DNA from: Cordylochernes scorpioides
Lineage: Eukaryota
Direction: 5' to 3'
Assembly (NCBI GenBank): GCA_030710605.1
Contig: CP092864.1
Span: forward strand, 139,481,418-139,545,417
DNA: 64,000 nt
In this document: positions 30,070 to 63,572 of the stretch, one piece after another
How positions within the stretch are numbered: position 1 is the first letter of the stretch
How the letters are laid out: each line of letters opens with the position of its first letter
Program-made: the position numbers and the translations under genes
The notes under the pieces: generated by a model
Seen by the model: only the letters and a program-made list of their open reading frames with translations
The model's database searches: none
Told to the model about the DNA's origin: nothing

Positions 30070-30101
<32 letters not shown>

Positions 30102-30972
30102 CGAACAGAAGCTAATCTATTTAGATTCTGAATGGGCCCTAAAGGGCTTTAAGTGACTTAAAAAGGAGTGTTAGGGTTCGTATATTTTGTCCCGCTAGAA
30201 TAGATGGAGATCTAGGTTTCCCCCCCTTTTTGTGTAGTAGCCAACCTAGATTTCGCATGGGCCTTAAAGGGCTATAAAGTAACTTCAGGTCACCTCTATC
30301 TAAATTTTACTATGTAAATAGCATATCTCGTCAGTATAGACATGTTCCCAAATTTTAAGATATTTTAAATAAATGTCTAGAGAAATTTTCTTGTTTCCTC
30401 TGTTACCTATTTCATACATAATTTGCCTTATGGTGCTATTCCCACTGTTTAAATGAAATGTTGTATGTTTCTTACCTATTTGAAGGGAATGTTACTAATA
30501 ATCAAGTCTCCCATAAATTACCGGCCACATACATTGCCGCGAGTGTCTGTGTTTCAGTGTTTTATAGATTGCCCAATTTAATAACGATTTCATGGGTTGT
30601 CTGATAATATTGTATAATAGTGTCGCGGCTGTTTCCATCTTTAGACCATTGTTCTGACAATATTATATGCTCGATCCTTGCTTTAGCTCAACTCTTAATC
30701 AATTACAGAGTTTTTCCCCCCTTTTCTTTTTTATTTATTTTATTTATCCTGTTTGCATAAATTGCATTACATGTGATGATGTAAAGACATATGCCGATAG
30801 TGCATCACTGACAGCTGTGCTGCTATTATACAACATTAAGGTCTTGCTGTGGGTTATATACATGGGGTTGTTGGCCTAAATTGCTATATATATATATACT
30901 TAAGTAAGGAAACTTTTAATAAGATACATCGTGTATCCTCCCTTTTCAACTATCCAAACCGGGAACCCATCA
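29198..30972 (+). repeat. A-type interspersed repeat, copy 2
   Basis: Near-identical to 549-2310. It ends at the same AACCCATCA and is followed directly by the LINE 3' terminus. Confidence 0.8.
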
Positions 30973-35929: not shown

Positions 35930-36425
35930 TCTATATATATATATAAATGAATGTATGTGTCTGTCTGTCCTTTATGCCTGACCAAACCACTCATTGGAAC
36001 GCCGTGAAACTTTGGGAAGTTATTTAGTATAGTACTGGGAAGGTTTCTAGCAAATAAATTTTTTGAAATAACTTTTCGCCTAAAAATTCTAAATTAATAT
36101 GCCTAAATATTCTAATTCATCTGTTATAATTCAACAATCTGCTCTAAATATTATCATGATGATACGATGATTTTGTAATGTAGAAAATTAGGAAAGACAA
36201 AATTCAGGATGACACGGTAATTTATTTGAGACAAGAATAATGATACAATTCCAAGGCAAGATACTATTCCTTTAACTTCCAATTACCGAGGGAACCAATT
36301 AATATTGATTTTATTCAACTTATCGAGTATTTTTCAAGGGACCGGGAATGTTCACTTTATTGAGAGATTCGTTAGACAAACCTTTACTCTGGTAAAACCC
36401 GGGCGAAGCCAGGTACGTCCACTAG
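35930..36425 (+). mobile_element. Non-autonomous Helitron-like element (5' TCTATATATATATATAAATGAATG ... 3' CCCGGGCGAAGCCAGGTACGTCCACTAG, followed by T)
   Basis: 496-bp element. An inverted near-identical copy lies at 56410-56905. It starts TC, ends CTAG, has a GC-rich subterminal palindrome and sits between A and T. Confidence 0.7.
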
Positions 36426-37880: not shown

Positions 37881-38418
37881 TGTGTGTGGGTAAGGATAAA
37901 TTAAACATTAACTCTGCTCTGAAAGAAGAACCCTTATGCTCAAAACTGGGCAACTCTGTGCTTCACTTCCATCAATAATTGACAATATGACCCAGAATAA
38001 GTATATTGCTACGGCGTTTTATGGTTTCCACAAGTCCATATCTCAGAAGAAGGCCAAGTGACACTCACTCCTCACTTTCTTACTGCTACTCTTTTTGTGT
38101 TGTTTTTCTTGCTTCCCTCTTTCTCTTTCTTGTTTTTTTTTTTCTTTTTCTTCTGTCTATATCGTTGTTTCCTTTGTCTCACTGCTTTGTTCTTATGCAT
38201 ACCTCTGGTGAATCCTGTATAGGGTCAGTGACCCTAAATAAAGGCTTTTTGTTGTTGTTGTAAATTAAATATTAAATCCATTATTTTGGAAGAGACACCC
38301 GGTATTTCAAATATCATAATCATTTTTGTGTACTTCAAAATAGAACACATTGTAATATTTATCAGAGAAACAGCTTGTAGTTGCACTGTAAGCACATGTA
38401 GCAGAGTAACTTGACATT

Positions 38419-38868
38419 CTATATACAGTTACGAGCGTCATGCGTTCTTCATCTCTGTCACCGTTTGCTTTTATTTTGGAATGGCGCTCTCCTATTGGTT
38501 CGCTATGATGGCGCCGCCACTGCGCAAGACACTTTGCCCCCCCCCCCCCCCACTCGCTTTTTCATTTTTGTAACTATTGTGTTGGTCGCTCCTTAAATAA
38601 ATGCATATATTAGTTAATAACTAAATGGAATCCTCTCTTTCTTTTTCCCAGTAAGAGACGCCTACGGAAGCCAACAGTACATAGACAGATAAAGCACATA
38701 GGCTATAGTTATTAACTAATATATGCATTTATTTAAGGCGCCAATTTATAATTGTAACAAATAGTATTTGAATCAAAACATTCAATCGGGTAAAACACGG
38801 GCGTTAATGATCCAACAGGTCCACGTGTCTAAATTAAAACACGGGCGTTGCCCGGGTCATTCGGCTAG
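38419..38868 (+). mobile_element. Helitron-like element of a second subfamily (TCTATATACAG ... CACGGGCGTTGCCCGGGTCATTCGGCTAG, followed by T)
   Basis: Contains a poly-C(15) tract and a CCAAT plus GC-box module (read on -: G-tract..CAAAGTG..GGCGGCGCC..CCAATAGG). The 3' part matches 54066-54160 and 62891-62950 in inverse orientation. Internal 32-bp inverted repeats sit at 38590-38625 and 38708-38740. Confidence 0.6.
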
Positions 38869-43630: not shown

Positions 43631-43631
43631 T

Positions 43632-44877
43632 ATACAAAGGGGGATCAATAAATAAGGTGAATTATCTTATTTCTTAAAAATTAAAAAAGCAAAAATAATT
43701 TAAAGCACAGAATATTAAAATATAACATCGAGAGACTATTTAAGGTGTTCTGTTCTTTTTTCCCACGCGCGGCGCGAGACATATAAATAAACTAAAATGG
43801 AAGCTCCCTTGAAGGATTGCACCACGCTCGAACAAGGTGCAGTTATTCGTTTCTTGAATGCAGAAGGTATTCAAATATCTCAAATATGCCAAAGAATAAA
43901 AAATATCTATGGTGAGTCTTGTTTGTCTCAAAAAAACATTTATAAATGGGTTAACGAGTTCAAAAATGGACGAATTACATGTTCCTCAGGTCTCAACGTT
44001 CGGCCGGTAAAGTTTTGTTAACAATTTTTTGGGATGTGGATGGACCAATCAGTCTTGATTTTTTATCCTCAAGGCAACGTATGAACAGCGGCCTTTATTG
44101 TGACATTCTTGTAAATAAACTAAAGCCCGGATATAAGAAACAAAAGAAGAGGGAAGCTTAGTAAAGGTGTTCTCTTCCTTCATGATAATGTAAGGGGGGT
44201 CGGTGGAAGGCTGGTTAAACCGTTTGGTTTACGACCACTACGACCCGGGTTCGATCCCCGCATTGGACACTTTTTTCTGTTAAAAAAAAATGCTCCAATG
44301 GCCCCCCGATTCTTGCAAAAGTCCAACCCCACCACCGAGTGCAAGTAACCAAACGGGGCTCTGGCACATTTGTAAGTGCAAAGTCGAACTGCTTTCACAT
44401 GTGTAGACATGTGGTGCGCTTACAGTAAAAAGCAGTCGCTAACTACCCACCATGATTATCATGGCCTGTACCACGTGTACTAGGGATAAGCAAAAAAAAA
44501 AAATGATAATGCAAGGCCGCATACATCATGTAAAACTGTATCTACAATCATTAAATTAGGTTTTGAAGTTTTAGAACATCCTGCATATAGTCCAGACCTA
44601 GCCCCTTCTGACTATTTCCTTTTTGGACTACTAAAGAAGGAGTTAAAGGGAAAGCGATTTGACTCGGATGAAGATGTCCAGAAAGTGGTGCAAGATATTT
44701 TTCACACACTTCCTAAGAGTGCCTATAAAGAGGGTATTTACAAGTTGCCAGAACGATGGAAACGATGTATAGAAAGCCAAGATGATTATTTTGAATAAAT
44801 CAAGTCCTAATTTTTAATATCGTTTTTATTTTTTTTAATAAATTATAATTCACCTTATTTATTGATCCTACCTTGTA
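43632..44877 (+). mobile_element. Second mariner-like element, internally deleted (catalytic DDD core missing), with ~33-bp terminal inverted repeats TACAAAGGGGGATCAATAAATAAGGTGAATTAT
   Basis: N-terminal HTH ORF at 43797-44021 (MEAPLKDCTTLEQGAVIRFL). C-terminus at 44530-44800 (HPAYSPDLAPSDYFLFGLLKKELKGKRF...DDYFE). Terminal repeats at 43632-43664 and 44845-44877. The flanks are consistent with TA. Confidence 0.75.
44194..44503 (+). mobile_element. tRNA-derived SINE (tRNA-like head with box B GGTTCGATCC and a poly-A tail) inserted inside the mariner
   Basis: GGGGGGTCGGTGGAAGGCTGGTTAAACCG...GACCCGGGTTCGATCCCCG, then ~230 bp of body and A(12). A second copy lies at 55834-56138. Confidence 0.75.
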
Positions 44878-45206
44878 TATATAAATATCAAAGATAGATT
44901 TAACTTTATCATTTATATATTGAATGTCTTTGCGGACCTATTGTCCTAATGAATAGCTAACACTTGAAAGCTTGCTATTTTATCCAAAAAATGAAATGAT
45001 TTGCAATCAGGCTTTGTTGATTACAATGTTGAAGAGTTTTGCTTGTATACTAGTGAGGTTAGGCTTAGAGCGGACAAAACTAACTAGGCTTGGGAGCCAT
45101 TTTATTCTCTTTTTACTAGTCCAGGGATCAAAATTTAAGTTGAAATAGATAGAATAGGTGTTGAATTATAGTCAATTGAATGAAAGAAAATAGCAACTAA
45201 GAATTC

Positions 45207-45421: not shown

Positions 45422-46372
45422 TCAAACACGAAATCTCACAGGCGGTCTCCTCGCTCGAGGTGGGTTCCGCCTTAGGACAGGACCCTCCTCTTTCAAGGCC
45501 TCGGGGTCCAGCGAGCGAAGAGGCTCCAATGACTTTCCATCGTCTGTATCACTCTGAACCTCTGAATCTTGATCCGACCGCTGGCTAGTTAGTCCTGGCG
45601 ACAGCGACTCCATATAACCTCTGTCTCGTACAACCTCCGAGATTATGGCACTGGGACCTGCTCCTCTTGAGTGCTCGGGTTGACGCTCTCCATCTCCACT
45701 CTCATCTTCCTCACCATTCCTCCACCTTTTTCTAATTTGATCCCTGTGATAGGCCTTTACCTGTCCGTGGATCAAAATGGTGTAGACTCTAGTTCCCTTC
45801 TTGCCCACAATTTTTCCTGGGATCCATTTATCACCACCTCTAAAGTTTTTACACCACACTAAATCATCTATCTGGAATTCTTCCAAATGGGTTCGCCGAT
45901 CATACTTCATTTGCCTGGCTTGCTGGTCCCTAACTCTAGATGCCAAGCTGGGATGTATCAACGATACTCTGGTTCGAAGCGCACGCCCAATAAAGAGCTC
46001 TGATGGAGTCTTTCCCGTTGTCACATGCGGGGTGCTTCGATATGCCAGAAGAACTTTTGATAAGGTGTCTTGAATGGTATCCCCAATTTTCCTTTTATTT
46101 TTATCCAGGGCAGTCTTAATTGTTCTAACCGCTCTTTCAGCCAAGCCATTACTTTGCGGGTGGTACGCCGGGATCAATGTTTGTTTAATTCCATTTCCTT
46201 CCAGAAAACCTTTCATTTCACTACCAGTAAACTGAGGTCCATTATCAGATACAAGTTCCTCCGGTAGACCATAGGAAGAAAAAAGTCGCCGTAGTTGCTC
46301 AATGGTTTTGCGTGTGGTGGTCTCTCTCATTGGGATGGCTTCGATCCACTTTGAATGACTATCTACTACTAT
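45422..46372 (-). CDS. pol: Integrase catalytic core and C-terminus, in the same frame as the upstream Gag-Pol ORF and separated from it only by one TGA (46373-46375)
   Basis: Reading through the TGA gives ...HIDFANKENINL*IVVDSHSKWIEAIPMRETT..., which is the expected integrase D-region. The rest contains SDNGPQFTG and HPQSNGLAER (DDE core). Confidence 0.85.
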   Translation of the reverse strand: MVVDSHSKWIEAIPMRETTTRKTIEQLRRLFSSYGLPEELVSDNGPQFTGSEMKGFLEGNGIKQTLIPAYHPQSNGLAERAVRTIKTALDKNKRKIGDTIQDTLSKVLLAYRSTPHVTTGKTPSELFIGRALRTRVSLIHPSLASRVRDQQARQMKYDRRTHLEEFQIDDLVWCKNFRGGDKWIPGKIVGKKGTRVYTILIHGQVKAYHRDQIRKRWRNGEEDESGDGERQPEHSRGAGPSAIISEVVRDRGYMESLSPGLTSQRSDQDSEVQSDTDDGKSLEPLRSLDPEALKEEGPVLRRNPPRARRPPVRFRV

Positions 46373-49300
46373 TCATAAATTAATGTTTTCCTTATTTGCA
46401 AAATCAATGTGAATTCTTTGCCAAGGTCTGGTTGACCATTTCCAGGGTTGCCATTTTCCTTTATTTGGCCCATCCTGGGATTGCTGACAGCTTCTGCACT
46501 TATTTACCAAAAACTCGATTTGGGTATCTAGATTTGGCCACCAAAAATGTGATCTTGCTACAGCCTTCATTTTGTTCATACCAGAATGAGTCTCATGAAG
46601 ACAGTTCAACATTTTTATTCTGAGAGATGGTGGAATGACAACTCTCATTCCCCAAACCAAACACTCCCCATCTACAGTTAGCTCAAGTTTCCTTTGAAAA
46701 TAAGGTCTGAGGTGATCAGCCACCTTTTCAGGCCAGCCTTGCTGAGTATAAAATTTGGCCAATGAGAGCACTTCGTCTTTTTCAGTTTCTGTGGCAATTT
46801 CCTCTGCTGTGATCGGCAATTCTTCCACATAGGATAAAGCATAGACATTATTTAATCTTGGAATTTCTTCACAGCCCACAGGAAAACGTGACAGAAGATC
46901 TGCATTCCCATGGTCTTGAGTTCTTCGAAATTTAATATCGTAAGTATAAGCTGACAAAATAAGCGCCCAACGCTGCAATCTTGAAGTAGATAAGGTGGGG
47001 ATTCCTGATCTTGAGCCCAAAATGGTCACCAATGGCTTATGGTCTGTAATAAGAATAAATTTTCTTCCATAAATAAATTGATGAAACTTGGTAACTCCAT
47101 AAATAATGGCTAGAGCCTCCTTCTCAATCTGAGAATAATTTTGTTCTGCTACCGATAAAGTCCGTGAGGCAAACATAATCGGTCTCTCCTGGCCTTCTAT
47201 AATATGTGACAACACAGCGCCCACTCCAATCTGCGATGCATCAGTGGCCAAACACAATGGCAAAGTCGCATCATAAGGGACTAGCACCCTCTCAGAGGTA
47301 ATGCTATTCTTGCACTTGTCAATGGCCTCTCCACATTCCTTTGTCCAAACCCAAGGACGTTTTTTGTGAAGAAGCTCATGAAGAGGCTTCAAAAGCTCTG
47401 GCAAATTGGGTATGAACTTCCCATAAAAGTTTACCAAACCAAGAAATGACCTTAATTCAGAGATATTCGTAGGCGTTTTGGCCTTCTGTATTGCTTGTAC
47501 CTTATGATCTAAAGGTCTGATGCCCTCTTCCGTGACAAGATGTCCTAAATATTCAATTTCTTTTTGCAAAAATAGGCATTTTTCTTTCTTTAGTTTGATA
47601 TTATACTTCGCCAAGCGAGCAAATATAGTCTTCAACAACGCCAGATGTTCTTCAATTGATGCTGTGGCTATAAGGACATCATCAATATAACAAATTACGC
47701 CTCCTATACCTGACAAAACCCTATCCATTACAGATTGAAAATAACTGGGCGCATTTGCCAATCCAAATGGCATTCTCTTAAACCTGAAAAGCCCTTTATG
47801 AGTATTTATCGTTAGTAACGGTCGGGTGCCTGGGTCCACCTCTAATTGCAGATAAGCGTTCCTCAAGTCCAATTTAGAAAAGTATTTTCCCTTGGCCAAT
47901 GTGGAGAATAAATCTTGCTGTGTGGGAAGGGGATAGGCCGCAGTGTCCAAATATTTATTTAGAGTTACCTTGAAGTCGCAGCAAATTCTGATCTCTTTAT
48001 TTTTCTTCGGCACTACAACCACTGGAGTGGCCCATTTACTGCTCGCCACCTCACATAGATAACCCTTAGCCACCATTTTGTCTAATGCTTCAGTAACTGC
48101 TGGCCTAATGGCGAAAGGCACCGGACGAGCCTTATGGAAAATTGGATTCACATCACACATGTTTACTGAAAATGTGAAACCTTTTATTGGTTCGGTTGTC
48201 TCCACAAATAGGGCTTGATTTTCCTTCAAAATTTCCTCAATGGTAATTTCCACAGGCATATGTTTTACCGCGAAACAGCCCAATTTCAATCTATTTATCC
48301 ATTCTCTTCCCATCAAAGCCCTCTTTTCTCCTTTCACCACCAACGCTCTAAGTTTGTAAGTAATATCTTGACACTCCACTTTGACATTGATTTTACCCAG
48401 AATGGGTACCACGGTACCATCATAAGTTCTTACAATAATACTCGCTTTTTCCAATTTCAAGTGTTGAAGACTATTTTTAAAATCCTTTTCTGATATCAGT
48501 GTTAGACCACTACCCGTATCCATTTCAAATTTAATAAAGTTTCCTTCTACTTTTAACTCCATCAGATAGGGAGGGTCACTTGAGGCAAAATTAATTTTAT
48601 ACTCAGGTATCGTCACGCTTATAATTTTCTGGACATACTCTTCCTCCTCTTCTTGGTCTCCTATCTGATGTATATTTCCCGGCTGATTCTGATGTTGCCT
48701 TAGATTTCTTCTACTGCTCCAACATATTGAGGCAATGTGTCCTTTTTTATTACACTTAAAGCATATCGCCTCCTTAAATCTACATAGTTCTTTATGCTGT
48801 TTACCACAATGTTTACATTTGCCATTCTGGAAATTTGAATCAACCTTGCGTTCCATCCTCAACTTATCTACACAATCTTCACCCTGCTCCAAGTGAAATA
48901 ATTTTGTATTTTTCTCGGCCGCTTCCATAGATAATGCTATCTCAATTACTTTAGCTAAAGAAATGTCGCCCTCCGACAAAATTCTATTTTGTATTTTGGC
49001 ATTATATAATCCACAAACCATTTTATCACGTAAAGAATCCTCCAGAAAATTTCCAAAGTTGCATGAGGAAGCCAAACGCTTAATTTCCACCAAGTAATCC
49101 GAGATGCTTTCTTCCTTTAATTGCATTCTTTTAAAAAAAATGAACCTCTCTACTACAATTGAGCGCTTTGGAGAGAAGTGCCTTTTCAAGATATCTATTA
49201 GGTTATCAAAAGTTTTATCTTTAGGTAGAATAGGACTGCACAAATTCTTCAAAACACCATATGTTTTACTTCCCATGAGGGTTAGGAGATAAGCCTTTTT

Positions 49301-49408
49301 CTTCTCATCCCCTGCCTCCTCCAATATGAGAAACTGTTCCAATCGTTCATAAAACGTTTCAAAAGTTTCAGTTTCCTCATTATATTCCTTAAATTGGTAA
49401 CTAGCCAT
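46373..49408 (-). CDS. gag-pol: Fused Gag-Pol: gag with two CCHC knuckles (CKHCGKQHKELC, CFKCNKKGHIASIC), protease (FEMDTGSGLT), RT (CYIDDVLIA), RNase H (LATDASQIGVGAVL), integrase zinc finger (HETHSG..CRSCQ)
   Basis: 1011-aa ORF. gag and pol are in a single frame, with no frameshift. Confidence 0.9.
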   Translation of the reverse strand: MASYQFKEYNEETETFETFYERLEQFLILEEAGDEKKKAYLLTLMGSKTYGVLKNLCSPILPKDKTFDNLIDILKRHFSPKRSIVVERFIFFKRMQLKEESISDYLVEIKRLASSCNFGNFLEDSLRDKMVCGLYNAKIQNRILSEGDISLAKVIEIALSMEAAEKNTKLFHLEQGEDCVDKLRMERKVDSNFQNGKCKHCGKQHKELCRFKEAICFKCNKKGHIASICWSSRRNLRQHQNQPGNIHQIGDQEEEEEYVQKIISVTIPEYKINFASSDPPYLMELKVEGNFIKFEMDTGSGLTLISEKDFKNSLQHLKLEKASIIVRTYDGTVVPILGKINVKVECQDITYKLRALVVKGEKRALMGREWINRLKLGCFAVKHMPVEITIEEILKENQALFVETTEPIKGFTFSVNMCDVNPIFHKARPVPFAIRPAVTEALDKMVAKGYLCEVASSKWATPVVVVPKKNKEIRICCDFKVTLNKYLDTAAYPLPTQQDLFSTLAKGKYFSKLDLRNAYLQLEVDPGTRPLLTINTHKGLFRFKRMPFGLANAPSYFQSVMDRVLSGIGGVICYIDDVLIATASIEEHLALLKTIFARLAKYNIKLKKEKCLFLQKEIEYLGHLVTEEGIRPLDHKVQAIQKAKTPTNISELRSFLGLVNFYGKFIPNLPELLKPLHELLHKKRPWVWTKECGEAIDKCKNSITSERVLVPYDATLPLCLATDASQIGVGAVLSHIIEGQERPIMFASRTLSVAEQNYSQIEKEALAIIYGVTKFHQFIYGRKFILITDHKPLVTILGSRSGIPTLSTSRLQRWALILSAYTYDIKFRRTQDHGNADLLSRFPVGCEEIPRLNNVYALSYVEELPITAEEIATETEKDEVLSLAKFYTQQGWPEKVADHLRPYFQRKLELTVDGECLVWGMRVVIPPSLRIKMLNCLHETHSGMNKMKAVARSHFWWPNLDTQIEFLVNKCRSCQQSQDGPNKGKWQPWKWSTRPWQRIHIDFANKENINL

Positions 49409-52492: not shown

Positions 52493-54004
52493 CTAGACGA
52501 ATGGCCCGGGCAACGCCCGGGGTTTACCCGAGTGCGAATATATTTTAAAAACGTTGTCTTGGGTGGTCGCTATAGACAGGGTGGTCTGTATAGACAGGTG
52601 TATGTATCACACTGCTGATAACAGGGTTGCCTGAAGTGACCGCTATAGACAGGGTGGTCTGTATAGACAGGTGATTGTAACACACTGATGATAACAGGGT
52701 TGCCTAAAGTGACCGCTATAGACAGGGTGGTCTGTATAGACAGGTGGATGTATCACACAGCTGATAACAGGGTTGTCTAGAGTGGCCGCTATAGACAGGT
52801 GTATGTATCACACAGCTGATAACAGGGTTGTCTAGAGTGGTCGCCATAGACAGGGTGGTCTGTATAGACAGGTGTATGTATCACACAGCTGATAACAGGG
52901 TTGTCTAGAGTGGTCGCTATAGACAGGGTGGTCTGTATAGACAGGTGAATGTATCACACAGCAGATAACAGGGTTGTCTAGAGTGGCCGCTATAGACAGG
53001 GTGGTCTGTATAGACAGGTGGATGTATCACACAGCTGATACCAGGGTTGTCTAGAGTGGCCGCTATAGACAGAGTGGTCTGTATAGACAGGTGGATGTAA
53101 CACACTGCTGATAACAGGGTTGTCTAGAGTGGCCGCAATAGACAGGGTGGTCTGTATAGACAGGTGTATGTATCACACTGCTGATAACAGGGTTGCCTAA
53201 AGTGACCGCTATAGACAGGGTGGTCTGTATAGACAGGTGAATGTAACACACTGATGATAACAGGGTTGCCTAAAGTGACCGTTATAGACAGGGTGGTCTG
53301 TATAGACAGGTGGATGTATCACACAGCTGATAACAGGGTTGTCTAGAGTGGCCCCTATAGACAGGTGTATGTATCACACAGCTGATAACAGGGTTATCTA
53401 GAATGGCCGCTATATACAGGGTGGTCTGTATAGACAGGTGGATGTAACACACTGCTGATAACAGGGTTGTCTAGAGTGGTCGCTATAGACAGGGTGGTCT
53501 GTATAGACAGGTGTATGTATCACACTGCTGATAACAGGGTTGCCTAAAGTGACCGCTATAGACAGGGTGGTCTGTATAGACAGGTGAATGTAACACACTG
53601 ATGATAACAGGGTTGCCTAAAGTGACCGCTATAGACAGGGTGGTCTGTATAGACAGGTGAATGTAACACACTGATGATAACAGGGTTGCCTAAGGTGACC
53701 GCTATAGACAGGGTGGTCTGTATAGACAGGTGGATGTAGCACACTGCTGATAACAGGGGTGTCTAGAGTGGCCGCTATAGACAGGGTGGTCTGTATAGAC
53801 AGGTGGATGTAACACACTGCTGATAACAGGGTTGTCTAGAATGGCCGCTATAGACAGGTGTATGTATCACACAGCTGATAACAGGGTTGTCTAGAGGGGG
53901 GCAGGGAGGTCACGTGTTCATCCGGCAGCCAATGGGCGCGCATTCTATCCGTGAGCTTCAGACATACAGACAAACAGACAGAATAAGGCAAATATATAAG
54001 TAGA
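52493..54004 (-). mobile_element. Helitron-like non-autonomous element carrying a 73-bp tandem array and a G-tract, CACGTG, CCAAT module
   Basis: On + it begins with a|CTAGACGAATGGCCCGGGCAACGCCCGGG (the reverse complement of a 3' hairpin plus CTAG). On + it ends with ...CAAATATATAAGTAGA (5' TCTACTTATATATT on -). Near the 5' end is GGGGGGCAGGGAGGTCACGTG..CCGGCAGCCAATGGGCGCGC. Confidence 0.65.
52560..53890. repeat. Minisatellite: about 18 tandem units of ~73 bp (CGCTATAGACAGGGTGGTCTGTATAGACAGGTGNATGTANCACACNGNTGATAACAGGGTTGNCTNNAGTGNC), with some 55-bp short units
   Basis: Direct reading. The minus-strand 62-aa MCYIHLSIQTTLSIA ORFs are repeat artifacts. Confidence 0.9.
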
Positions 54005-54065
54005 TGGTTTTCTTATATACCTGCATTTAATAAGGAAGGCAGCTTAGGGGTGTTTAGAGAACCTA

Positions 54066-54190
54066 CTAGCCAAATGGCCCGGGCAACGCCCGGGTTTTAC
54101 CCGATTAAATGCTTTTATTCAAATACTATTTGTTACAATTATAAATTGGCGCCGTGGATTCAATTCTTGTATAATATATAAATGAGTTTT
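54066..54190 (-). mobile_element. Truncated Helitron-like 3' fragment (the 38419-38868 subfamily in inverse orientation)
   Basis: a|CTAGCCAAATGGCCCGGGCAACGCCCGGGTTTTACCCGATTAAATG... matches the reverse complement of 38760-38868. Confidence 0.55.
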
Positions 54191-54209
54191 AAAAATTGTA
54201 AAAAAAAAA

Positions 54210-54280
54210 TGCATCGGCCGGGAATCGAACCCGGGCCGCCCGCGTGGAAGGCGAGCATTTTACCACTGAACTACCGATGC
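54210..54280 (-). tRNA. trnG-UCC: tRNA-Gly (anticodon TCC), 71 nt, with a downstream T(10) Pol III terminator
   Basis: The minus-strand sequence GCATCGGTAGTTCAGTGGTAAAATGCTCGCCTTCCACGCGGGCGGCCCGGGTTCGATTCCCGGCCGATGCA folds as a cloverleaf. It has a 7-bp acceptor stem, box A TAGTTCAGTGG, an anticodon loop CTTCCAC and box B GGTTCGATTCC. It is highly similar to metazoan tRNA-Gly-TCC. TTTTTTTTTT follows the 3' end. Confidence 0.85.
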
Positions 54281-55296
54281 TTATAAGAAATGGCCATATT
54301 TGGGTATTTATTCCATTCACACAAAAGCAAACGGTGACAGAATTAAGAATTGATTAATGACTCTGATACTTGTATTAATTAATGCTTATAGGTCTGTAGA
54401 GGTGCATACTTCAAGAAATTACATCGAGCAAAGCTCTTCAGCAAATATGGTTTTATATCAAAGCTATATGAGCTATAAATTAAATAACAACAGCATTGAT
54501 ACCATCTTCAGAGAAAAGTATTAAAATGGACTCTTCTTTCTTCTTCTTTCTTATCTCAAAGCCATGATAATCATGGTGGGTAGTTAGAGACTAAAATGGA
54601 CTAAAACTTAGATTCTAAAAAATTTTTGAAATTGGTAACAATTTTGTTATCGAAGGTAGCCTTTAATTATTCAATTGAGTTTTTCAATAATTTGAAATTT
54701 CTTTACATTGCAAGAAACTCTCATTGTCCCAGATTAGCATTGGACATTACTAGAAATTTAAACATACCACTTTTAGTTTTGGCTTTGCATACCACCAAAG
54801 GTGGCCTTTTATTTTTAGACCTCCTCTGGTAAATCTGCAGCCTGTTAAATAGGAAATTGATTGTACAGTTGAATATTGATTTGAAAAAAATGTGTCAGGT
54901 AACCAAAAGGTTTCGGTCTTAAATCATATCTGGATCTATATTTTATTAGTTACCCTACTGGAACTGTATTCAGGATCAATACACAATCAGTCTTAAATAC
55001 AAGGTGGTCTAAAATTCAGAGTAGGTCTTAAAACAAGAAATAACTGAATAAACTCACTCACTTAAGCAAGCTAACAAAATATTTTGTCTAAAAAAATGGT
55101 GGTTTTGAAATTAGCACTGTGTAATAAGTGAGAGCATTATGTGATGTGGAAAAAGATAAAGCACAATTTGGATTATAGATTATAGCTACAAGAAAATAAG
55201 ACCTAATCCAAATAAATTAATAATATGTGACATTTCAGTAACATCATTGTTACCATCATCAGACAAAAGAATAAATGATTTATTCTTTATTATATA

Positions 55297-55654
55297 CTAG
55301 ACGGGTAACCCGGGCTTCGCCCCGGGATTGACCCGTGTGCATATCTACCCGAGCGATATATATTTAGATAAGATTTTTTAAAATAATTTTTTGTTATTAG
55401 CATTATCTATTTGTTTGCATCAGCATAATTTAATCTAATCTTTGATAGAGGGCGCTGTTCGTGAGCTAAGTAGAATAATTTGAATATACAGTTTTAATAA
55501 TTGATTTATATATTTTTTAAAATAGCCTATCGTCTTCCCCGTATTTTTTTACCTATGTATGGAAATTTTGGTTTGAATTAGTGAACTACTGCGAATTTGT
55601 ATACCGGACATAAAAACAAACAAACATACAAACATTCATTTATATATATATAGA
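55297..55654 (-). mobile_element. Helitron-like non-autonomous element (358 bp), nearly identical to 60111-60466
   Basis: On + it runs a|CTAGACGGGTAACCCGGGCTTCGCCCCGGGATTGACCCG ... CATTCATTTATATATATATAGA. On - this is 5' TCTATATATATATAAATGAATG and 3' hairpin plus CTAG. Confidence 0.7.
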
Positions 55655-55830
55655 TATAACAGCATTGTTACCATCATCAAACAAAAGAATAAATGATTTA
55701 TTCTTTTACTATATATATAACAGCATTGTTACCATCATCAGACAAAAGAATAAATGATTTATTCTTTATTATATATATAACAGCATTGTTACCATCATCA
55801 GACAAAAGAATAAATGATTTATTCTTTATT
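55655..55830 (+). repeat. Tandem ~60-bp units x3 (TATAACAGCATTGTTACCATCATCAGACAAAAGAATAAATGATTTATTCTTTATTATATA). A fourth unit sits at 55240-55296 on the other side of the Helitron, and an inverted copy at 56139-56235
   Basis: Direct reading. The Helitron 55297-55654 interrupts the array. Confidence 0.8.
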
Positions 55831-55833
55831 ATA

Positions 55834-56138
55834 GGGGGGTTGGTGGAAGGATGGTCTAAACCGTTGGTTTACGACCGCTACGACCCGGGCTCGATTCCCA
55901 CATTGGGCACTTTTTTCTGATTTAAAAAAAATGCTCCAATGGCCCCTGATTCTTGTAAAAGTCCAACCCCACCAGCGAGGGCAAGTAACCAAACGGGGAT
56001 CTGGGACATTTGTAAGTGCAAAGTCGAACCGCTTTTCACATGTGTAGACATGTGGTGCACTTACAATAAAAGCAGTCGCCTTCTACCCACCATGATTATT
56101 ATGGCCTGTACCACGTGTACTAGGAATAAGCAAAAAAA
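55834..56138 (+). mobile_element. tRNA-derived SINE, copy 2
   Basis: About 93% identical to 44194-44503, with the same GGGGGGTYGGTGGAAGG head, GGGYTCGATYCC box B and an A-rich tail. Confidence 0.75.
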
Positions 56139-56409
56139 TAAATCATTTATTATTTTGTCTGATAATGGTAACAACGCTGTTAATGAAATGTCACACGCTA
56201 TTAATTTATTTGGATTAGGTCTTATTTTCAGTAATGTGTAAAAATTACACTCATGGACAAATTAAGGAAGTTCTACCTCCAAGCACGAGTTTCTTACTTT
56301 ATTTTATATTTTTTTCTCTAGCTTTCGGGTTTTACAAACCCTTCTACAGGAGTATGTGATAGGAAATAATTCAAGATACATTCATGCTTCAAAGCCATTT
56401 TATTCATTA

Positions 56410-56905
56410 CTAGCGGACATACCCGGCTTCACCCGGGTTTTACCCGAGTAAAAGTTTGTCTAACGAATCTCTCGATAAAGTGAACATTTTTTCCCGGTCC
56501 CTTTAAAAATACTCGATAAGTTGAATAAAATCAATATTAATTGGTTCCCTCGGTAATTGGAAGTTAAAGGAATAGTATCTTGACTTGGAATTGTATCATT
56601 ATTCTTGTCTCAAATAAATTGCCGTGTCATCCTGAATTTTGTCTTTCCTAATTTTCTACATTACAAAATCATCGTATCATCATGATAATATTTAGAGCAG
56701 ATTGTTGAATTATAACAGATAAATTAGAATATTTATCTTGATTATTTTTAGGCGAAAAGTTATTTCAAAAATTTTATTTGCTAGAAACCTTCCCAGTACT
56801 ATACTAAATACCTTCCCAAAGTTTCATGGCATTCCAATGAGTGGTTTGGTCAGGCATAAAGGACAGACAGACACACATACATTCTCATTTTTATATATAT
56901 AAAGA
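56410..56905 (-). mobile_element. Helitron-like element, inverted copy of 35930-36425
   Basis: Its reverse complement aligns end-to-end with 35930-36425. CTAG at 56410-56413; 5' TCTTTATATATATAAAAATGAGAATG at 56905. Confidence 0.7.
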
Positions 56906-56940
56906 TTCAATACTTGTATCCCAAAAAAAGGAGGACTTAC

Positions 56941-57081
56941 ATCAGAGTTGAGGTTCCCTGTGTAGCCCATGAACAGTCTGGGGGCCTCCGCCAACAATCC
57001 GACCATGAGGAAGAACATGTTCAGCAGGCGGTTGAAGTCATCCAGAAAGGGATACTGCCACAGGATTAAAACTTTCCCAGT
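56941..57081 (-). CDS. Putative internal coding exon of the membrane protein gene (acceptor CTGCAG|, donor |GTAAGT)
   Basis: Translation TGKVLILWQYPFLDDFNRLLNMFFLMVGLLAEAPRLFMGYTGNLNSD (141 nt, open). A consensus GTAAGT donor sits at 56935-56940 (reverse complement). The exon lies between a Helitron and the piggyBac. Confidence 0.35.
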
Positions 57082-57140
57082 CTGCAGTTAGTAATCCTGA
57101 AAATTTCAATGAGCCAAGTAAGCAGAGGCAATGATTTTAA

Positions 57141-59285
57141 CCCTTTAAGCGCCGAGGTAACGATCCATCGTTACCCTATAACGTCACCAGGAGCGCCGGG
57201 GTACCGATCTATCGTTACTTCCTTGTAGGGCCCCTCGTGGGGGAGGGGGTGGTGGCTGGCTATTTTTATCACCTCCCTTCTCACTTCTGGGCTTGTCTCT
57301 ACACGTTAGCTGTGTTTTTATCTCCTTTGTCTTGCGATTTCCTTTTTTTATTTTTAATTTTTTAAAAATGGCTTCCGGTTCAGAATGCTCTGCATTTTCT
57401 GAGGACACTGAAGTTTATTCTTTGTCTTCTGAGTTTGAAGAAAGTGTTGAAGACACTTTTGAAGATGAATTTTCTGATGAAGAAGTGGATGAAAACCAGC
57501 CAAGTCCTTGGGTAAGAGTTTATACTCCATTTTCCACATCTAAAACGTTGACTTTTGGAGAAGTTTGTGGCCCACAGCACCTTCCCCCCTCTATTATCCG
57601 GCCTATTGAATACTTTTTGTTATTCATAACAATTAATTTGATGAAGGAAATTGTGGCTTTTACCAATAAATGTGCCCAAACTTTATTGGCAAGCAATAGG
57701 GACAAATTGCCTCTATTTTCTAGGAAGCTGGCCTGGAAGGACACTACCTTGGATGAGATGATGGCCTTTATTGGAGTCATCTTCAATATGGGCAATGTGA
57801 AGAAGAACCAAATCAGGGACTATTGGAGCAAGAATGAACTTTTAGAGACGCCCTGGTTTGGTAAAGTTATGTCTAGAGGGAGATTTGAGTTGCTCTACAG
57901 CTGCTTTTCTCTGATTGATGACTCCAACCTGGTTCCAAGTTCTCATCCTGATTACAACCCAACTGCAAGATTTGAGAAGCTCATAGAGCATGTGAACAAC
58001 AAGTTTATATATTATTATAAGCCTACTCAAAATCTTACAGTTGATGAGAGCTTGGTGTGCCTAAAAAACCGAACTCGTCTTAGACAATATATGCCCCAAA
58101 AGCACCATGGTCGATTTGGAGTCAAACTGTGGATGCTTTGTGAATCTAAAACTGGCTATTGTCTGAGAATGAAGCCATATAAAGGGAAATTATCTCCAAT
58201 TATCAAGTCCCTTTCCTATGATGTTCCAATGAATCTGCTCCAGGAATCCAGTTTACTTGGAAAAGGTTATCATTTGATAACTGACAACTTTTTCACCAGC
58301 ATCAACCTAGCCAAGGACTTACTGGACAGTCATACTTATTTGACTGGTACTATAAGAACTAATAGGAAAGGACTTCCTAAAACCTTAAAAAGTGCAAAAT
58401 TAGGTGTTGATGAATCCCTTTATATGGTAAATAATAATCTACTGGCCCTGGCTTACAAAGAAAAGAAGAGCAAACCTCCAGTGAAGTTTCTCTCAACATT
58501 TTGTGATGCTTCTTCTGGCAAAAAGAAGGTGTCAGACCAAAGAGACTACCCACAGATGAAAATATGCTATGATAGCTACATGGGAGGGGTAGATCTCAAT
58601 GATCAAATGTTGTATACATATATGGATGAAAGAAAAGGAAGAAAATTTTATAGAAAGGTGATCCTCAACATCTTCCACAGGGCTTTCCTAAACTCCTTCA
58701 TCCTATATGAACAGCATACCAAAGACAACCCCAAGCTTTCTAGAAGGGCTTTTAACTATTCAGTAATAAATGAATTAGTTAAAAATCACTTGAAACCTCC
58801 AGTACTGCCTTCAACAAGCCAGGAAGTACTCGAAAAACTTCCAGAAAAGAGAGAGAGTAGATGTGTGGAGTGTACAAAAGAAGGCCTGAAGCGGAGGTCT
58901 AGAACCATATGTTCAAAGTGCAAGAGAGGCTTGCATCCAGTCTGTGCTTTTAAACACAAGTGTTAGCTTTGTAAATAGCCTTGTATATATCTAAAATTCC
59001 TTTTTATATTTGTAAAACCTTATTTTGAAAAATTCAAGTCGATTATTCAATTAATTATAATTAACCCCCAATTAAAAAATTAAATACTCACTCCAGTATA
59101 ATAAAATCAGAGTGTTGTGTTGAGAGAGGAGTCTGGATTATATTACACTTTACAGAACACTTCTATCTATCATATTTATTTATTTATAACATTTTTTACT
59201 TAACAACTACTTGATCATCAGTTTAGGCTTAATTAGTGTGGTCCTGATAGTGATAGTTAGCATTCGGGCCCTAGAGCTTAAAGGG
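57141..59285 (+). mobile_element. piggyBac-family DNA transposon (2145 bp) with TTAA target-site duplications and terminal inverted repeats CCCTTTAAGC / GCTTAAAGGG
   Basis: TTAA at 57137-57140 and 59286-59289. The terminal 10 bp are perfectly inverted, with partial matches beyond. A single intact transposase ORF lies inside. Confidence 0.85.
57368..58966 (+). CDS. piggyBac transposase (about 533 aa from MASGSECS), intact ORF with a DDD catalytic region and a C-terminal Cys-rich domain (CVECTKEG..CSKCKRGLHPVCAFKHKC)
   Basis: Conserved piggyBac blocks: DESLVCLKNRTRLRQYMPQKHHGRFGVKLWMLCESKTGYCLRMKPYKGK, GYHLITDNFFTS, LTGTIRTNRKGLP and YDSYMGGVDLNDQ. There are no internal stops. Confidence 0.9.
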   Translation: MASGSECSAFSEDTEVYSLSSEFEESVEDTFEDEFSDEEVDENQPSPWVRVYTPFSTSKTLTFGEVCGPQHLPPSIIRPIEYFLLFITINLMKEIVAFTNKCAQTLLASNRDKLPLFSRKLAWKDTTLDEMMAFIGVIFNMGNVKKNQIRDYWSKNELLETPWFGKVMSRGRFELLYSCFSLIDDSNLVPSSHPDYNPTARFEKLIEHVNNKFIYYYKPTQNLTVDESLVCLKNRTRLRQYMPQKHHGRFGVKLWMLCESKTGYCLRMKPYKGKLSPIIKSLSYDVPMNLLQESSLLGKGYHLITDNFFTSINLAKDLLDSHTYLTGTIRTNRKGLPKTLKSAKLGVDESLYMVNNNLLALAYKEKKSKPPVKFLSTFCDASSGKKKVSDQRDYPQMKICYDSYMGGVDLNDQMLYTYMDERKGRKFYRKVILNIFHRAFLNSFILYEQHTKDNPKLSRRAFNYSVINELVKNHLKPPVLPSTSQEVLEKLPEKRESRCVECTKEGLKRRSRTICSKCKRGLHPVCAFKHKC

Positions 59286-60110
59286 TTAAACCAGGGCAAA
59301 TAAGACTTTACCACCCTGATTAAAAACTCATCTATGATAAGATACAATTTGGATTATAGATCAGAAACCAAGATAACAGAACCAAATACAAATAGTATGT
59401 GAAGTTTCAGGAAAAAGGGTTGTTACCATCATCAGAAAAAAGTTTTCTTGATTGGCTCTGTCTGCCTTGCTAGCAACATCTTTTCTTTTTTAATCGTAAC
59501 TCAATCATATTAGGCCTGTAGAGCTTGAGATTTATATTGTCTGCTGGGGATGAGTACAGCTCATCAATGGATGAGTCAATGCTATGCTGGCAACAACAGC
59601 ACCCTCTATGGTCACCTCAAGCTCCACAAGGTGGGTTGGTCCAGATAGACATTTACTTATTTGGATTTGGTCTTGTTACCGTATGTTAAAAACTTGTCTA
59701 TTACATAAATATTTCAACTACAAGACTTTTCATTAAAACTTGTAATAAAAGCTTCCATTTGATGCTAAAAAAATGCACTCGCAAGACAAGTTGACTCCTA
59801 AGAGATAGGTTAAATAAAAAATTGGTTATAAAAACATAAAACTATTCTTTCTTTGGAAAGTACAATCCTCTGCAATACATATAAATAATAAACAAAATGG
59901 CTTCATAGGATCAGTTTCTTATTTTATTTTATATCCCTCTCAAGCTTTCGTGTATCACAAACCCTTCTACAGGACTCCTGAAGGCAGCTTTGAGATACCA
60001 GAAAGCTTTAGAATAATATAAAATGTAAGAAATTCATCCTATGAAGCTCAAAGTGATATGACCAAATCTAAATAAATAATGTCACACTATTTATGTGTGT
60101 TTATAATCTA

Positions 60111-60466
60111 CTAGACGGGTGACCCGGGCTTCGCCCCGGGATTGACCCGTGTGCATATCTACCTGAGTGATATATATTAAGATAATATTTTTTTAAATAA
60201 TTGTTTGTTATTAGCATTATCTATTTGTTTGCATCAGCATAATTTAATCTAATCTTTGTTAGAGGGCGCTGTTCGTGAGCTAAGTAGAATAATTTGAATA
60301 TATAGTTTTAATAATTGATTTATATATTTTTTAAAATAGCCTATCGTCTACCCCGTATTTTTTTACCTATGTATGGAAATTTTGGTTTGAATTAGTGAAC
60401 TACTGAGAATTTGTATACCGGACATACAAACAAACATACAAACATTGATTTTTATATATATATAGA
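60111..60466 (-). mobile_element. Helitron-like element (356 bp), near-identical copy of 55297-55654
   Basis: The same termini and internal sequence (GATAGAGGGCGCTGTTCGTGAGCTAAGTAGAATAATTTG...). Confidence 0.7.
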
Positions 60467-60840
60467 AGATAATCCAAGTTATGTGCTTTATCATCCTATG
60501 AAGCTATTTTGTTTATTTATACTATTCTTTCTTATGCAAAATCAACGATGCTCTTCATATAGGATTTTGAACACATTTAGTATTTAGGGATTTAAAAAAA
60601 TTAGACATGTTAAACAGGGTCAGATGCTTAAGAAAGCTAAATTAATGATGGAACAAACAATCCCTACTAAACTCCAAAGACAGGTGACTGCAGATTTTAC
60701 TGTATTTAGTTCTCCTTATTGGTCTCTGTGTCACATCATTAAAAGTTGCCTTACTTGAGAGCAAAAAAGTGTCCAATGATGGCTGACCTCCATTTTGTAG
60801 TTGGCCCTACAGTCAAACCTCTCACTTATGGATAAGATCT

Positions 60841-61207
60841 CTTCTTCTTCTTTCTTATCTCCACTCAATCATTAGGGTATCAAGTTGTGACCCTTGATGG
60901 TATTTGACAACCATCATGACTGGGTGAAGTAGAATGCGTCTGCCTTTGTCATTAAGACTGGGAGCACTACTCAGTGGCAGGCCGACTTAGCTCCAAAAGA
61001 AATGGCCGCCTCTGACATGAGGAACAGACGCCATGTGCAGCCGCTCCTAACATGGAGTACAAACGCTGCTCATCCTGTATTCCTAGATTAGGAGCCCTTA
61101 CAGGGTACTATCAGCCGGGCCAGCTGAGCCCAGGTTTTTTAGTGAGCTTGTTACTGCTCCCTCTCCTCCTTTTTCATCCGGGCTTGGGACCGGCAAAGGC
61201 GGAGTTA
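60841..61207 (-). mobile_element. SINE-like D-family repeat, copy 2
   Basis: Matches 49985-50357. Confidence 0.5.
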
Positions 61208-61879
61208 TGGATAAGATAATTGTTGCAAAGACAAAGTGTCCTTTAGGAAGAGGTATACTCTTACTGGAGAGTTGCTAATTAGTAAAAATGGTAATTTTGG
61301 CGATGAAAATTGTCCTTTGTAGAGTGATAGATTTCTCTAGTAAGAGTGCCTTGTCACAGAGGTTCTACTGTATAGGAAGAGAAAGCAGAGACAAGCTTGG
61401 GTCAGCATCAACAAATGTGTTTGGCTCTATGGTTTCCATTTTTGGTTACAATGTATAAATTTGACATGGGACTTATCCCTCCCAATATAAATAAATAATA
61501 TCACACATCAGTCTTTGCATTTTATGGGGGAGTATTTTCTTATAATTCAAGAATTATACAACAACAAAAATCCTTTATTAAAGACACTTGTACCATACAG
61601 GATTCTCCTAAATTGGGTAAACAGAAGTAAACATAACATTCATCTAGAGAAAGTGGAGATTAACATCGACCTTTCTTCAAGTTGGATCCATCATCTGTGT
61701 TGAGCCTATTGTCTGTGTTGTTTCCCAGAATTTGTGAAAAGCTAATGCATTAGGTTTGTTTTTCATTACTTTTTCCATTAGAGAACATATGCGGAATTGT
61801 TTTCATAACCAATCTTTTGCCGAGAATTTCTCTGTCTTCCTCCAATACCAGAAAATAAAAAGTGTAGTGGGGAAAGTCA

Positions 61880-62097
61880 TGGTTAACCCGGCATTGCGCG
61901 CGCCGGGTGAAAATTACCCATGGCAACATTTGAATGGAGAATTAACCAATAAAAAATCGGTTGCCGGAGATGTGGTTTCGTTTAGCTTCCTGACTCATCA
62001 ATTAATCTAAAGTTTTGGTTTCACATTTTGACAGCTCCCACTGAAATTCCATCTATTGTCACTGTCGGGTAAAAATTACCCGGCGCGCGCACTCACG
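61880..62097. mobile_element. MITE-like element (~215 bp) with GC-rich terminal repeats GGGTAAAAATTACCCGGCGCGCGC
   Basis: 61885-61915 (CCGGCATTGCGCGCGCCGGGTGAAAATTACCC) is inverted at 62056-62095. A solo terminus of the same family sits at 63788-63850. Confidence 0.55.
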
Positions 62098-62890
62098 TAA
62101 TTTTTTTGTTGCATTTTTTTAATAACATTTTTTAAAATGAGATAAATAATTCGAATTAATAATTTAAAAAATAACTATAATAGGTTGATATATTTATTAG
62201 CCTATAATTCTATATAAAATGGAGGGAAGAAGGTCATATTTATTAGATCAAGAAGAGATTATTGTAGAAGGTGATATTGAAGAAGATCATCTAAATGAAC
62301 ATTTTTATGGAGGTGACACTGGAATATATTCAGATATAGGAATTTTGTGGAATAAGGGAATTATCCCACAAACACATTTTTATATAGGGAGAGCCTCGAA
62401 AATCAAATGGTTCAAAAATTGTCCTTCACAAACAGTAAAGCTGAGAACGCCTAATGTCATTACACATTTACTAGGCTTGAAAGGTGAAGAAGCAAAATAT
62501 TAAAATACACCTTTAGAAGCTCTTTTGAAGAAAATTTTTGAAAGTTTTGGCCCTTGAACTCATCAAAGAGCAACTAAATCAAAGAAAAATCATTTCTTCA
62601 CTGCCTAAAAGACTATTAAAAATTTCCTTTTTTTACAGTTAAGTTAATTTAAATCATAAATGTATACTCTAAATATTTATTTCAATTATTTTTAGAAGTC
62701 ACTTCAAGCCATTAAGAAGGTCAGGAACCGCAAGATAAAGCTTCCTACCAGATGTAGTGTGTCCCTCCAGTAAGGACAGGAAGACCTCGACTTTGTGCCA
62801 TAAATGTGTAAAAGCCAATTTATAAAGGACATACAATTGCAGTTTGCAATGATTTGTCTAAAATATCCTCATGGAATTTTATATATTTAA

Positions 62891-63572
62891 CTAGCCGAAT
62901 GACCCGGGCAACGCCCGGGTTTTACCCTATTAAATGTACCCTGTTTCACCCGTGGTCTCTGTTTTTTGGAATATTTTTCCCGATATAATTTTGTATCTGA
63001 TAATCAAACTTGATACAGCAAAATTTTTAAAAAGCAAAATTTTTAAAATAGCCTATCGTCTTCCCAGTATTCTTTTACCTATGTATGGAAATTTTGGTTT
63101 GAATTAGTGAACTACTGAGAATTTGTAGACGAATGCCCCGCGCAACTGTCCAACTGGGAGCGCCCCGCGCCGTCAAAATCGTCACGCGTTCTAGAGGGCG
63201 CTGTTCGTGAGCTCAACCGGCCGTCAGCCGGGAGATCTCATTTACTCGGCGGGGGGGGGGGGGGGGGGGTGCAGGGGGAAGGGAAGTCACGTGCTGCGCC
63301 GGCAGCCAATCGTCGCGCGCCGCCATCGCCCGCCTGAGTGTTCTAGAGGGCGCTGCTCGTGAGCTAAGTTGAATAATTTGAATATATAGTTTTAATAAAT
63401 GATTTATATATATTTTAAAATAGCCTATCGTCATCCTCGTTATTTTTTACCTATGTATGGAAATTTTGGTTTGAATTAGTGATCTACTGCGAATTTGTAT
63501 AGGAGTCATACAAACAAAGACACAGACAAACAAACATACAAACATACAAACATTCATTTTTATATATATAGA
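62891..63572 (-). mobile_element. Cluster of rearranged Helitron-family fragments (a 3' CTAG/hairpin end at 62891, partial bodies at 63040-63240 and 63330-63572, each with a G(22), CACGTG, CCAAT module)
   Basis: 62891 a|CTAGCCGAATGACCCGGGCAACGCCCGGG. 63046-63125 and 63420-63572 match the 55297-55654 body. The 5' end TCTATATATATAAAAATGAATG (on -) is at 63572. Confidence 0.5.

Follow-up and report, generated by a model that had tools for sequence, protein, structure and literature searches.

Short non-autonomous Helitron-type elements in the genome of the pseudoscorpion Cordylochernes scorpioides and their probable link to the insect Hel-2 lineage

Canonical Helitrons are defined by TC...CTRR ends, a palindrome near the 3' end and insertion between A and T, as quoted in PMC4067079. 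Hel-2 is the same element as BmHel-2 of Bombyx mori and OnMITE01 of Ostrinia nubilalis (Coates 2015, PMC4344730). It has been reported from Lepidoptera, from a few other insect orders and from insect viruses, and the (CTGT)n/(GTTT)n microsatellite behind its 5' motif has been called distinctive of it (PMC4344730). The Hel1 and Hel2 families of insects and spiders were described by Han et al. (2019, PMC6544945), and Ptep_Hel2Ca from the spider Parasteatoda tepidariorum has kept remnants of Rep/helicase (PMC6544945). Tandem arrays within rolling-circle elements are well documented; DINE-1 and DINE-TR1 of Drosophila and the Helentron-derived elements of oysters are a known source of dispersed satellite-like repeats (PMC4067079, PMC7492417, PMC8268682). 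In this work, we analysed a 64-kb stretch of the genome of Cordylochernes scorpioides, hereafter called the window. The host is a phoretic predatory pseudoscorpion, and no description of Helitrons in pseudoscorpions was found in the literature that we searched.

Using a self-comparison of the window, we found eight copies or fragments of one short non-coding repeat, all of them mutually related (Table 1). These repeats are very probably non-autonomous Helitron-type rolling-circle transposons that stand within or next to the Hel-2 lineage, which was first described in moths. The original prediction, made from the letters of the DNA, had read them as non-autonomous Helitrons, and the termini, the hairpin and the insertion between A and T all support this reading, as does the similarity of the 5' region to a published Helitron lineage. 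Every one of the eight intervals that it listed is a genuine related repeat. Its count of "at least nine" copies has to be lowered to eight, since profile searches of the whole 64 kb with the element ends gave exactly eight 3' ends. The same searches gave six clear 5' ends and no others, and copy B contributes a seventh, variant 5' end. At least four sequence variants can be told apart in the family. The plus strand carries two copies, and the six on the minus strand are all located between 52.5 and 63.6 kb.

Table 1. Coordinates of the Helitron-like copies and of associated features in the 64-kb window (letters A to H denote copies; sequences and ends are given in element orientation).
Feature	Position	Strand	Description
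Copy A	35930..36425	+	496 bp; 93% identical to F; hairpin decayed; 5' region matches Hel-2 profile (E=4e-7)
Copy B	38418..38868	+	~451 bp; 5' TCTATATAC; weak version of the G+C-rich block (ATTGG + C15)
Copy C	52493..54004	-	1512 bp; the copy flagged originally; 5' TCTACTTATATAT at 54004; 3' CTAG at 52493-52496; flanks A and T
3' hairpin of copy C	52505..52521	-	7-bp G+C stem, 3-nt loop, CCCGGGC GTT GCCCGGG; 8 nt before CTAG
Internal minisatellite of copy C	52553..53896	-	19 units (16 x 73 bp, 3 x 55 bp) and an 11-nt partial unit
G+C-rich block of copy C	53897..53941	-	GCGCGCCCATTGGCTGCCGGATGAACACGTGACCTCCCTGCCCCC; common to copy H
Microsatellite (GTCT/GTTT)n of copy C	53959..53982	-	just within the 5' end, as in published Hel-2 (PMC4344730)
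Copy D	54066..54190	-	125-bp 3' fragment; intact hairpin and CTAG; 94% identical to B over 69 nt
60-bp tandem array	55226..55833	.	interrupted by copy E; paralogous empty site
Copy E	55297..55654	-	358 bp; 95% identical to G; inserted precisely in the 60-bp tandem array
Copy F	56410..56905	-	496 bp; best Hel-2 profile match (E=3e-10)
Copy G	60111..60466	-	356 bp; subfamily of E; extended two-tier 3' hairpin, -11.4 kcal/mol
Copy H	62891..63572	-	682 bp; chimeric

The ends of the copies are those of canonical Helitrons. In element orientation, the copies start with TCT(A/T)TATATATA, that is, TCT(A/T)TATATA, and TC opens all seven 5' ends, which agrees with the canonical definition. The start TC(T)ATATATA proposed originally is therefore right in its TC and wrong for the copy at 52493, which begins with TCTACTTATATAT and not with TCTATATATA. 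The start of copy B had been placed at 38419, one base too late. At the other end, CTAG closes eight of the eight copies, as had been claimed, and it conforms to the canonical CTRR. The base that follows the 3' end is T in all eight copies. The base that precedes the 5' end is A in five of the seven copies and T at 38418 and 60111, so that the A and T flanks reported before hold fully on the 3' side and only in part on the 5' side. Behind the 5' terminal motif, six copies (A, C, E, F, G and H) carry a (CTGT)n or (GTTT)n microsatellite.

A G+C-rich hairpin with a stem of 6-8 bp lies close to the 3' end and finishes 8 nt before CTAG, i.e., 12 nt before the end of the element. The palindrome CCCGGGCAACGCCCGGG and its near variants (CCCGGGC-GTT/GAA-GCCCGGG) were found at six sites in the window, while shuffled sequence leads to an expectation of 0.02. 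The hairpin itself had thus been seen correctly; the exact 17-nt form occurs in three copies only (52505, 54078 and 62903, with one mismatch at 38840), and its distance from the end is 12 nt, not about 10. A variant, CCCGGGGCGAAGCCCGGG, is present in the copies at 55297 and 60111, and the palindrome is degenerate in those at 35930 and 56410. The hairpin folds in six of the eight copies, being decayed in 35930 and partly so in 56410. In these six, the intact palindrome of 17-18 nt located 12 nt from the terminus agrees with the canonical Helitron palindrome (16-20 nt, ~11 bp). The loop is GTT in copies C, H, B and D and GAA in copies A, F, E and G. In the published text that we searched for the hairpin sequences, no occurrence was found.

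Copy E made it possible to reconstruct the mode of insertion at one site. This copy interrupts a tandem array, and excising 55297-55654 rebuilds an intact junction of the 60-bp unit, which is identical over 38 nt to the unit at 55757. Because the junction is restored exactly, the insertion was a precise one between A and T that left the target site unduplicated, and it fixes both ends of the element within 1 nt. An empty site inside the window is clean proof of the insertion mode. Target-site duplications and terminal inverted repeats had been named beforehand as features that would argue against a Helitron origin. The empty-site reconstruction at copy E reveals no duplication, and neither terminal nor subterminal inverted repeats rise above shuffled controls, the best complementarity between the 5' and 3' parts being no higher than in shuffles at any consistent position. 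All the structural features of the canonical Helitron definition that can be examined within one window are present in this family.

To place the family among published elements, we built a profile from seven published Hel-2 elements taken from the supplement of Coates 2015 (PMC4344730). In the window, this profile matched copy F with E=3e-10 and copy A with E=4e-7, in the right orientation and from the 5' end, while the best match in the reversed window, which served as a control, had E=0.32. After the terminus and the microsatellite were removed from the profile, F and A still ranked highest, with E=0.0026 and 0.024, and both matches were collinear. A direct alignment of copy F with Hel-2 of Trichoplusia ni gave 69% identity over 117 aligned columns and a score of 34, as against 12.5 +/- 1.7 for shuffled sequences. 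Copies A and F are 66-69% identical to Hel-2 over the 5' ~115 nt, and the rest of these copies and the other subfamilies cannot be aligned with it, while the reference criterion is >=65% over a ~250-bp consensus. Significant similarity is thus confined to the 5' ~115 nt of the A/F subfamily. What the other subfamilies have in common with Hel-2 is the terminus, the microsatellite and the style of the hairpin. A profile of Hel1 made from its 5' ~130 nt (PMC6544945) found nothing significant in the window; its best match, with E=0.82, covered the terminus only.

Several copies have a history of internal rearrangement. In copy B, the hairpin region includes a duplication of 44 nt, and the interior contains a 36-bp inverted repeat with its arms at 38588-38623 and 38706-38741. 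Copy D may extend to ~54349 through a 40-nt B-like block located upstream of a tRNA gene. Copy H is a mosaic: in element coordinates, positions 1-233 are E/G-like, positions 234-442 are a G+C-rich insert of 209 nt, positions 443-533 are again E/G-like, and the 3' end is of the B/C/D type. Helitrons tend to swap or bypass their ends, and the chimeric structure of copy H, together with the two classes of 3' end, would fit such events.

The most conspicuous feature of copy C, which has no open reading frame longer than 68 aa, is its internal minisatellite. The prediction that one copy carries an amplified internal minisatellite was confirmed, and only its description as 18 units of 73 bp needs correction: the array is real, and it consists of 19 units, three of which are 55 bp long. 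The 55-bp units lack the 18-bp internal duplication GTGGTCTGTATAGACAGG. Units of two types, GTTGCCTAAAGTGACC... and GTTGTCTAGAGTGGCC..., alternate in blocks. When the array is aligned with itself, agreement is highest for shifts of 566 bp (88%) and 493 bp (86%), as against 83% for 73 bp, which indicates that it grew at least partly by duplication of blocks of several units. Since the array is made of such larger duplicated blocks, it most likely arose from an initial duplication that was followed by replication slippage or unequal exchange. The 73-bp unit has no match outside the array within the 64-kb window, and we therefore rejected the idea that it derives from sequence in the other copies; it is also absent from the viral and prokaryote collections that we scanned. 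An array-bearing copy of this kind is a further example of rolling-circle elements that generate, and possibly disperse, satellite-like repeats.

Next to the array, copy C carries a G+C-rich block that had been described as a promoter-like module. In element orientation its layout is GCGCGC..ATTGGCTGCCGG..CACGTGAC..C-tract. The block at 53897-53941 in copy C is 82% identical over 45 nt to the one at 63274-63318 in copy H, where it lies within the insert together with a C22 tract and where part of it is duplicated. Of this block, copy B shows ATTGG and a C15 tract only and lacks CACGTG, and the block is missing from the copies at 35930, 56410, 55297 and 60111. The same block had been assigned to three subfamilies, and it turned out to be convincing in two copies only, C and H, the third version (38419) being without CACGTG. 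In both C and H it adjoins short motifs, AGCTCACG.A.AG and CCCTCTAGA, that are contiguous in E/G, so that C and H look like relatives of a longer progenitor. The block is an internal segment inherited by the related copies C and H, and most likely it is a leftover of this longer progenitor or a captured fragment.

It has been proposed that the block is a functional promoter, either the native one of a lost Rep/helicase gene or one captured from the host. Promoter capture by Helitrons is documented in bats. Judging from the motifs, copy C could then drive outward transcription, through its TATA-like 5' terminus, into the flanking DNA. We consider this function unlikely. The block was kept between two otherwise divergent copies, and on the plus strand of the window copy C has CACGTG, AGCCAATGGG and GCGCGC in this order, with TATATAA ~60 nt further; all this would suit a promoter. 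However, the distance from the block to the 5' terminus varies from ~60 nt in C to ~250-270 nt in H, the block occurs in two copies, the third version lacks the E-box, and motifs of 5-6 nt are expected by chance in a G+C-rich stretch. The insert of copy H is 69% G+C and has a CpG observed/expected ratio of 1.05, compared to 0.69 for the window, but the CpG content does not discriminate, because the remainder of copy H has a similar ratio (~1.09). To speak of promoter activity here is an overstatement, as it would be deduced purely from short motifs. Still less probable, and in our view very unlikely, is that the block is a captured coding fragment with no regulatory role. An in-frame ATG does precede TGG in three copies, giving M..WLPDEHVTSLPP in C, MAARDDWLPAQHVTSLPP in H and MALSYWF.. 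in B, and three differences in the HVTSLPP part fall on third positions. However, the eight differences between C and H are split 2/2/4 over codon positions 1/2/3, which is indistinguishable from random, the reading frames have only ~30-40 codons, and they lead into a homopolymer run of C whose length varies (6, 15 or 22). In view of the codon-position split, the coding reading was rejected as unsupported. An inherited internal segment of a longer progenitor, or a captured fragment, is the reading that we retain.

The same weighing applies to the class of the whole family. Thomas et al. (2014, PMC4067079) grouped the lepidopteran "(GTCY)n-microsatellite MITEs", which are OnMITE01/Hel-2, with the DINE-1-like elements. 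The copies in the window could accordingly be HINEs, i.e., DINE-1-like elements mobilised by an endonuclease-encoding Helentron, and not derivatives of canonical Helitrons. Their layout does resemble that of DINE-1, in which a short microsatellite and a core follow the 5' terminus, the tandem repeats in the centre are variable, and a stem-loop lies on the 3' side; tandem repeats also fill about half of some HINE copies (PMC4067079). Such an assignment is nevertheless distinctly improbable. The subterminal inverted repeats of 12-15 bp do not appear above shuffles, the insertion is between A and T and not within TT, the boundaries have no T-runs, and TC...CTAG ends with a 17-nt palindrome 12 nt from the end correspond to the canonical Helitron definition (PMC4067079). 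That a MITE or a SINE merely mimics Helitron ends is extremely improbable. A MITE was indeed the first annotation given to a related insect element, OnMITE01 (PMC4344730), but the copies have neither the terminal inverted repeats nor the target-site duplication of a MITE. As for a SINE, there is no poly-A and no tRNA-derived head, and the window contains a single tRNA gene, which is intact and separate from the copies. The reading as short derivatives of canonical Helitrons is preferred over both.

If the family consists of such Helitron derivatives, each copy would keep only the cis-signals needed by a Rep/helicase encoded elsewhere. According to the enzymology of known Helitrons such as Helraiser, the 5' TC would be the nick site from which the transposase starts peeling off one strand, and the G+C hairpin located 8 nt upstream of the 3' CTAG would act as the stop signal. 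The excised strand would then be circularised, copied and inserted between A and T, and the target would not be duplicated. The interior of the element is free to vary, and in copy C an internal segment was amplified to 19 units. Neither a Rep/helicase gene nor its motifs were found anywhere in the 64-kb window. A helicase query stitched from Ptep_Hel2Ca matched thousands of arthropod Helitron helicases; no C. scorpioides protein was among the best 120 of the 5243 matches, and this result has no weight either way. No autonomous Rep/helicase partner was identified, so that mobilisation in trans is an inference.

The window is AT-rich and packed with transposons: nested LTR retrotransposons (gag/pol), mariner-like remnants and an intact piggyBac-type transposase. 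In a protein search, the piggyBac open reading frame at 57368-58966 was 88-99% identical to 11 Cordylochernes scorpioides proteins and at most 45% identical to those of the next species. This match, which is to a transposase and not to a host gene, points to a pseudoscorpion, an unexpected host for a relative of Hel-2. Both element ends, the block and the 73-bp unit were also looked for in viral, metagenome and prokaryote collections, and the viral and prokaryote data gave nothing relevant. Two viral matches to the 5' motif were attributed to chance, as they lie in AT-rich giant-virus contigs. Among eight metagenome matches, seven were unrelated hairpins. In the remaining one, a short non-coding contig, the hairpin-CTAG directly abuts TCTCTATATATATAAAAATGAGAG; it is possible that this is a head-to-tail Helitron junction.

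Hel-2 is known to jump among moths, parasitoid wasps and viruses. A far-reaching reading of our sequences would be that it has also become established and diversified in an arachnid, and that its copies may carry cargo with its own transcription signals, such as the CCAAT/E-box block of two copies and, possibly, a Pol III tRNA-Gly gene that is intact and lies within a B-like copy at 54066-~54349. We regard this combination as rather unlikely. If it is true, an arachnid Hel-2 would mean that horizontal spread reaches across arthropod classes. Given its similarity to the horizontally mobile Hel-2 of insects, the family is a candidate for work on transposon transfer between classes. The result is mainly one of annotation, a short Helitron family in a pseudoscorpion. 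It is an ordinary non-autonomous Helitron family that had been spotted correctly, and it leaves the current understanding of these elements unchallenged. What is new is modest: the host is a pseudoscorpion, and the family is linked to the Hel-2 lineage of insects. The habit of carrying arrays is already well known.

Compared with described systems, the family resembles DINE-1/DINE-TR1 of Drosophila and the oyster elements in being short and non-autonomous and in having a tandem array at its centre that may take up the greater part of the element. In contrast, those elements derive from Helentrons, have subterminal inverted repeats and insert at TT, and neither of these last two features occurs here. 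With the Hel1 and Hel2 families it shares the terminus type TCT(T/A)TATATATA(A)n, the TC...CTAG ends and insertion between A and T without duplication, whereas the 3' ends of those families are unlike those found here (PMC6544945). Ptep_Hel2Ca begins with TCTATATATATAAAAA, as the copies in the window do. These families indicate that arachnids carry Helitrons of this terminal type, with coding relatives (PMC6544945). The differences from Hel-2 are the host, which is a pseudoscorpion (Arachnida) and not an insect, the 5' end, which is TCTATATATATA here and TCCCTACTAATAT in Hel-2, and the hairpin stem, which is CCCGGG here and CGCGGG in Hel-2. The likeness to Hel-2 extends to the 5' TC and 3' CTAG with A/T flanks, the ATAAATG-GAA-GTA motif with a (CTGT)n or (GTTT)n microsatellite behind it, the collinear core AAACCACT..ATGAAA.TTTGG, the 3' G+C hairpin with a GCGAAGC centre, and the internal tandem arrays that have been reported in some Hel-2 copies.

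On either side of an intact tRNA-Gly(UCC) gene next to copy D (a 3' fragment of a non-autonomous Helitron, resembling copy B), we found sequence related to copy B. On one side, a 40-nt block at 54313-54349 matches positions 27-66 of copy B with 85% identity, and on the other, the stretch 54066-54153 corresponds to a B-like 3' part with the hairpin and CTAG at its end. Judging from this arrangement of sequence, the tRNA gene may lie inside a B-like Helitron, which would be a case of gene capture. The 5' terminus of this putative element is not recognisable, and the arrangement occurs at the single locus 54066-54349. Copy B itself contains an inverted repeat, and precisely where this repeat ends on the right, copies B and D are homologous again. 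Thus, a small insertion, nested within copy B, probably accounts for the repeat and the sequence enclosed by it. The 3' hairpin region of copy B also contains a 44-nt duplication.

Features in and around the Helitron copies
Feature	Position	Strand	Details
tRNA-Gly(UCC) gene, intact	54210-54280	- (element strand)	Rfam 63.7 bits; T10 terminator
~1-kb element with 60-bp tandem units	55192-56229		target of copy E; inverted ends ~97 nt
piggyBac-type transposase ORF, intact	57293-58966	+	DDE_Tnp_1_7, E=4e-71
Inverted repeat, 36 bp, 97%	38588-38623 / 38706-38741		within copy B; 82 nt enclosed
Long direct repeat pair, nearly identical	549-1715 / 29198-30377		spacing 28.66 kb
Long direct repeat pair, nearly identical	2919-6040 / 18959-22085		spacing 16.04 kb
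gypsy-type pol, second	45422-49408	-	
Long C/G homopolymer, C31	49900-49930		outside any Helitron copy
Long C/G homopolymer, C22	63251-63272		in copy H
Long C/G homopolymer, C15	38537-38551		in copy B
L004 (metagenome contig Ga0068872_10196599)	129-180		hairpin CCCGGGCGAAGCCCGGG, 8 nt, CTAG, directly TCTCTATATATATAAAAATGAGAG

The Helitrons lie among transposable elements of other types. The element into which copy E is inserted has inverted ends (55192-55288 and 56133-56229) that are 91% complementary, and a related second copy is located at about 43631-44879. It resembles foldback or MITE-like elements that carry subterminal repeats. The piggyBac ORF is 97-99% identical to many annotated C. 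scorpioides proteins, and in several of the matching gene models it is fused to host-like domains. This suggests that the piggyBac family is young, is present in high copy number and contaminates the gene annotation of this genome. The two direct-repeat pairs are nested and enclose gypsy-type gag/pol (ORFs 11076-15526); they are probably nested LTR retrotransposons that were inserted recently and have very long LTRs.

All six Helitron copies within the 11 kb at 52493-63572 are on the minus strand, an orientation bias with p of only about 0.03 at this number of copies (n = 6). Copies C and D are arranged head to tail, with 61 nt between them. When collections were scanned for the Helitron 3' end, a contig from an environmental sample (L004) was matched. 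From the order of its motifs, it is possible that at positions 129-180 two Helitron-like ends of the type present in the window are joined head to tail. Clusters of Helitrons in the same orientation are known from reports elsewhere.
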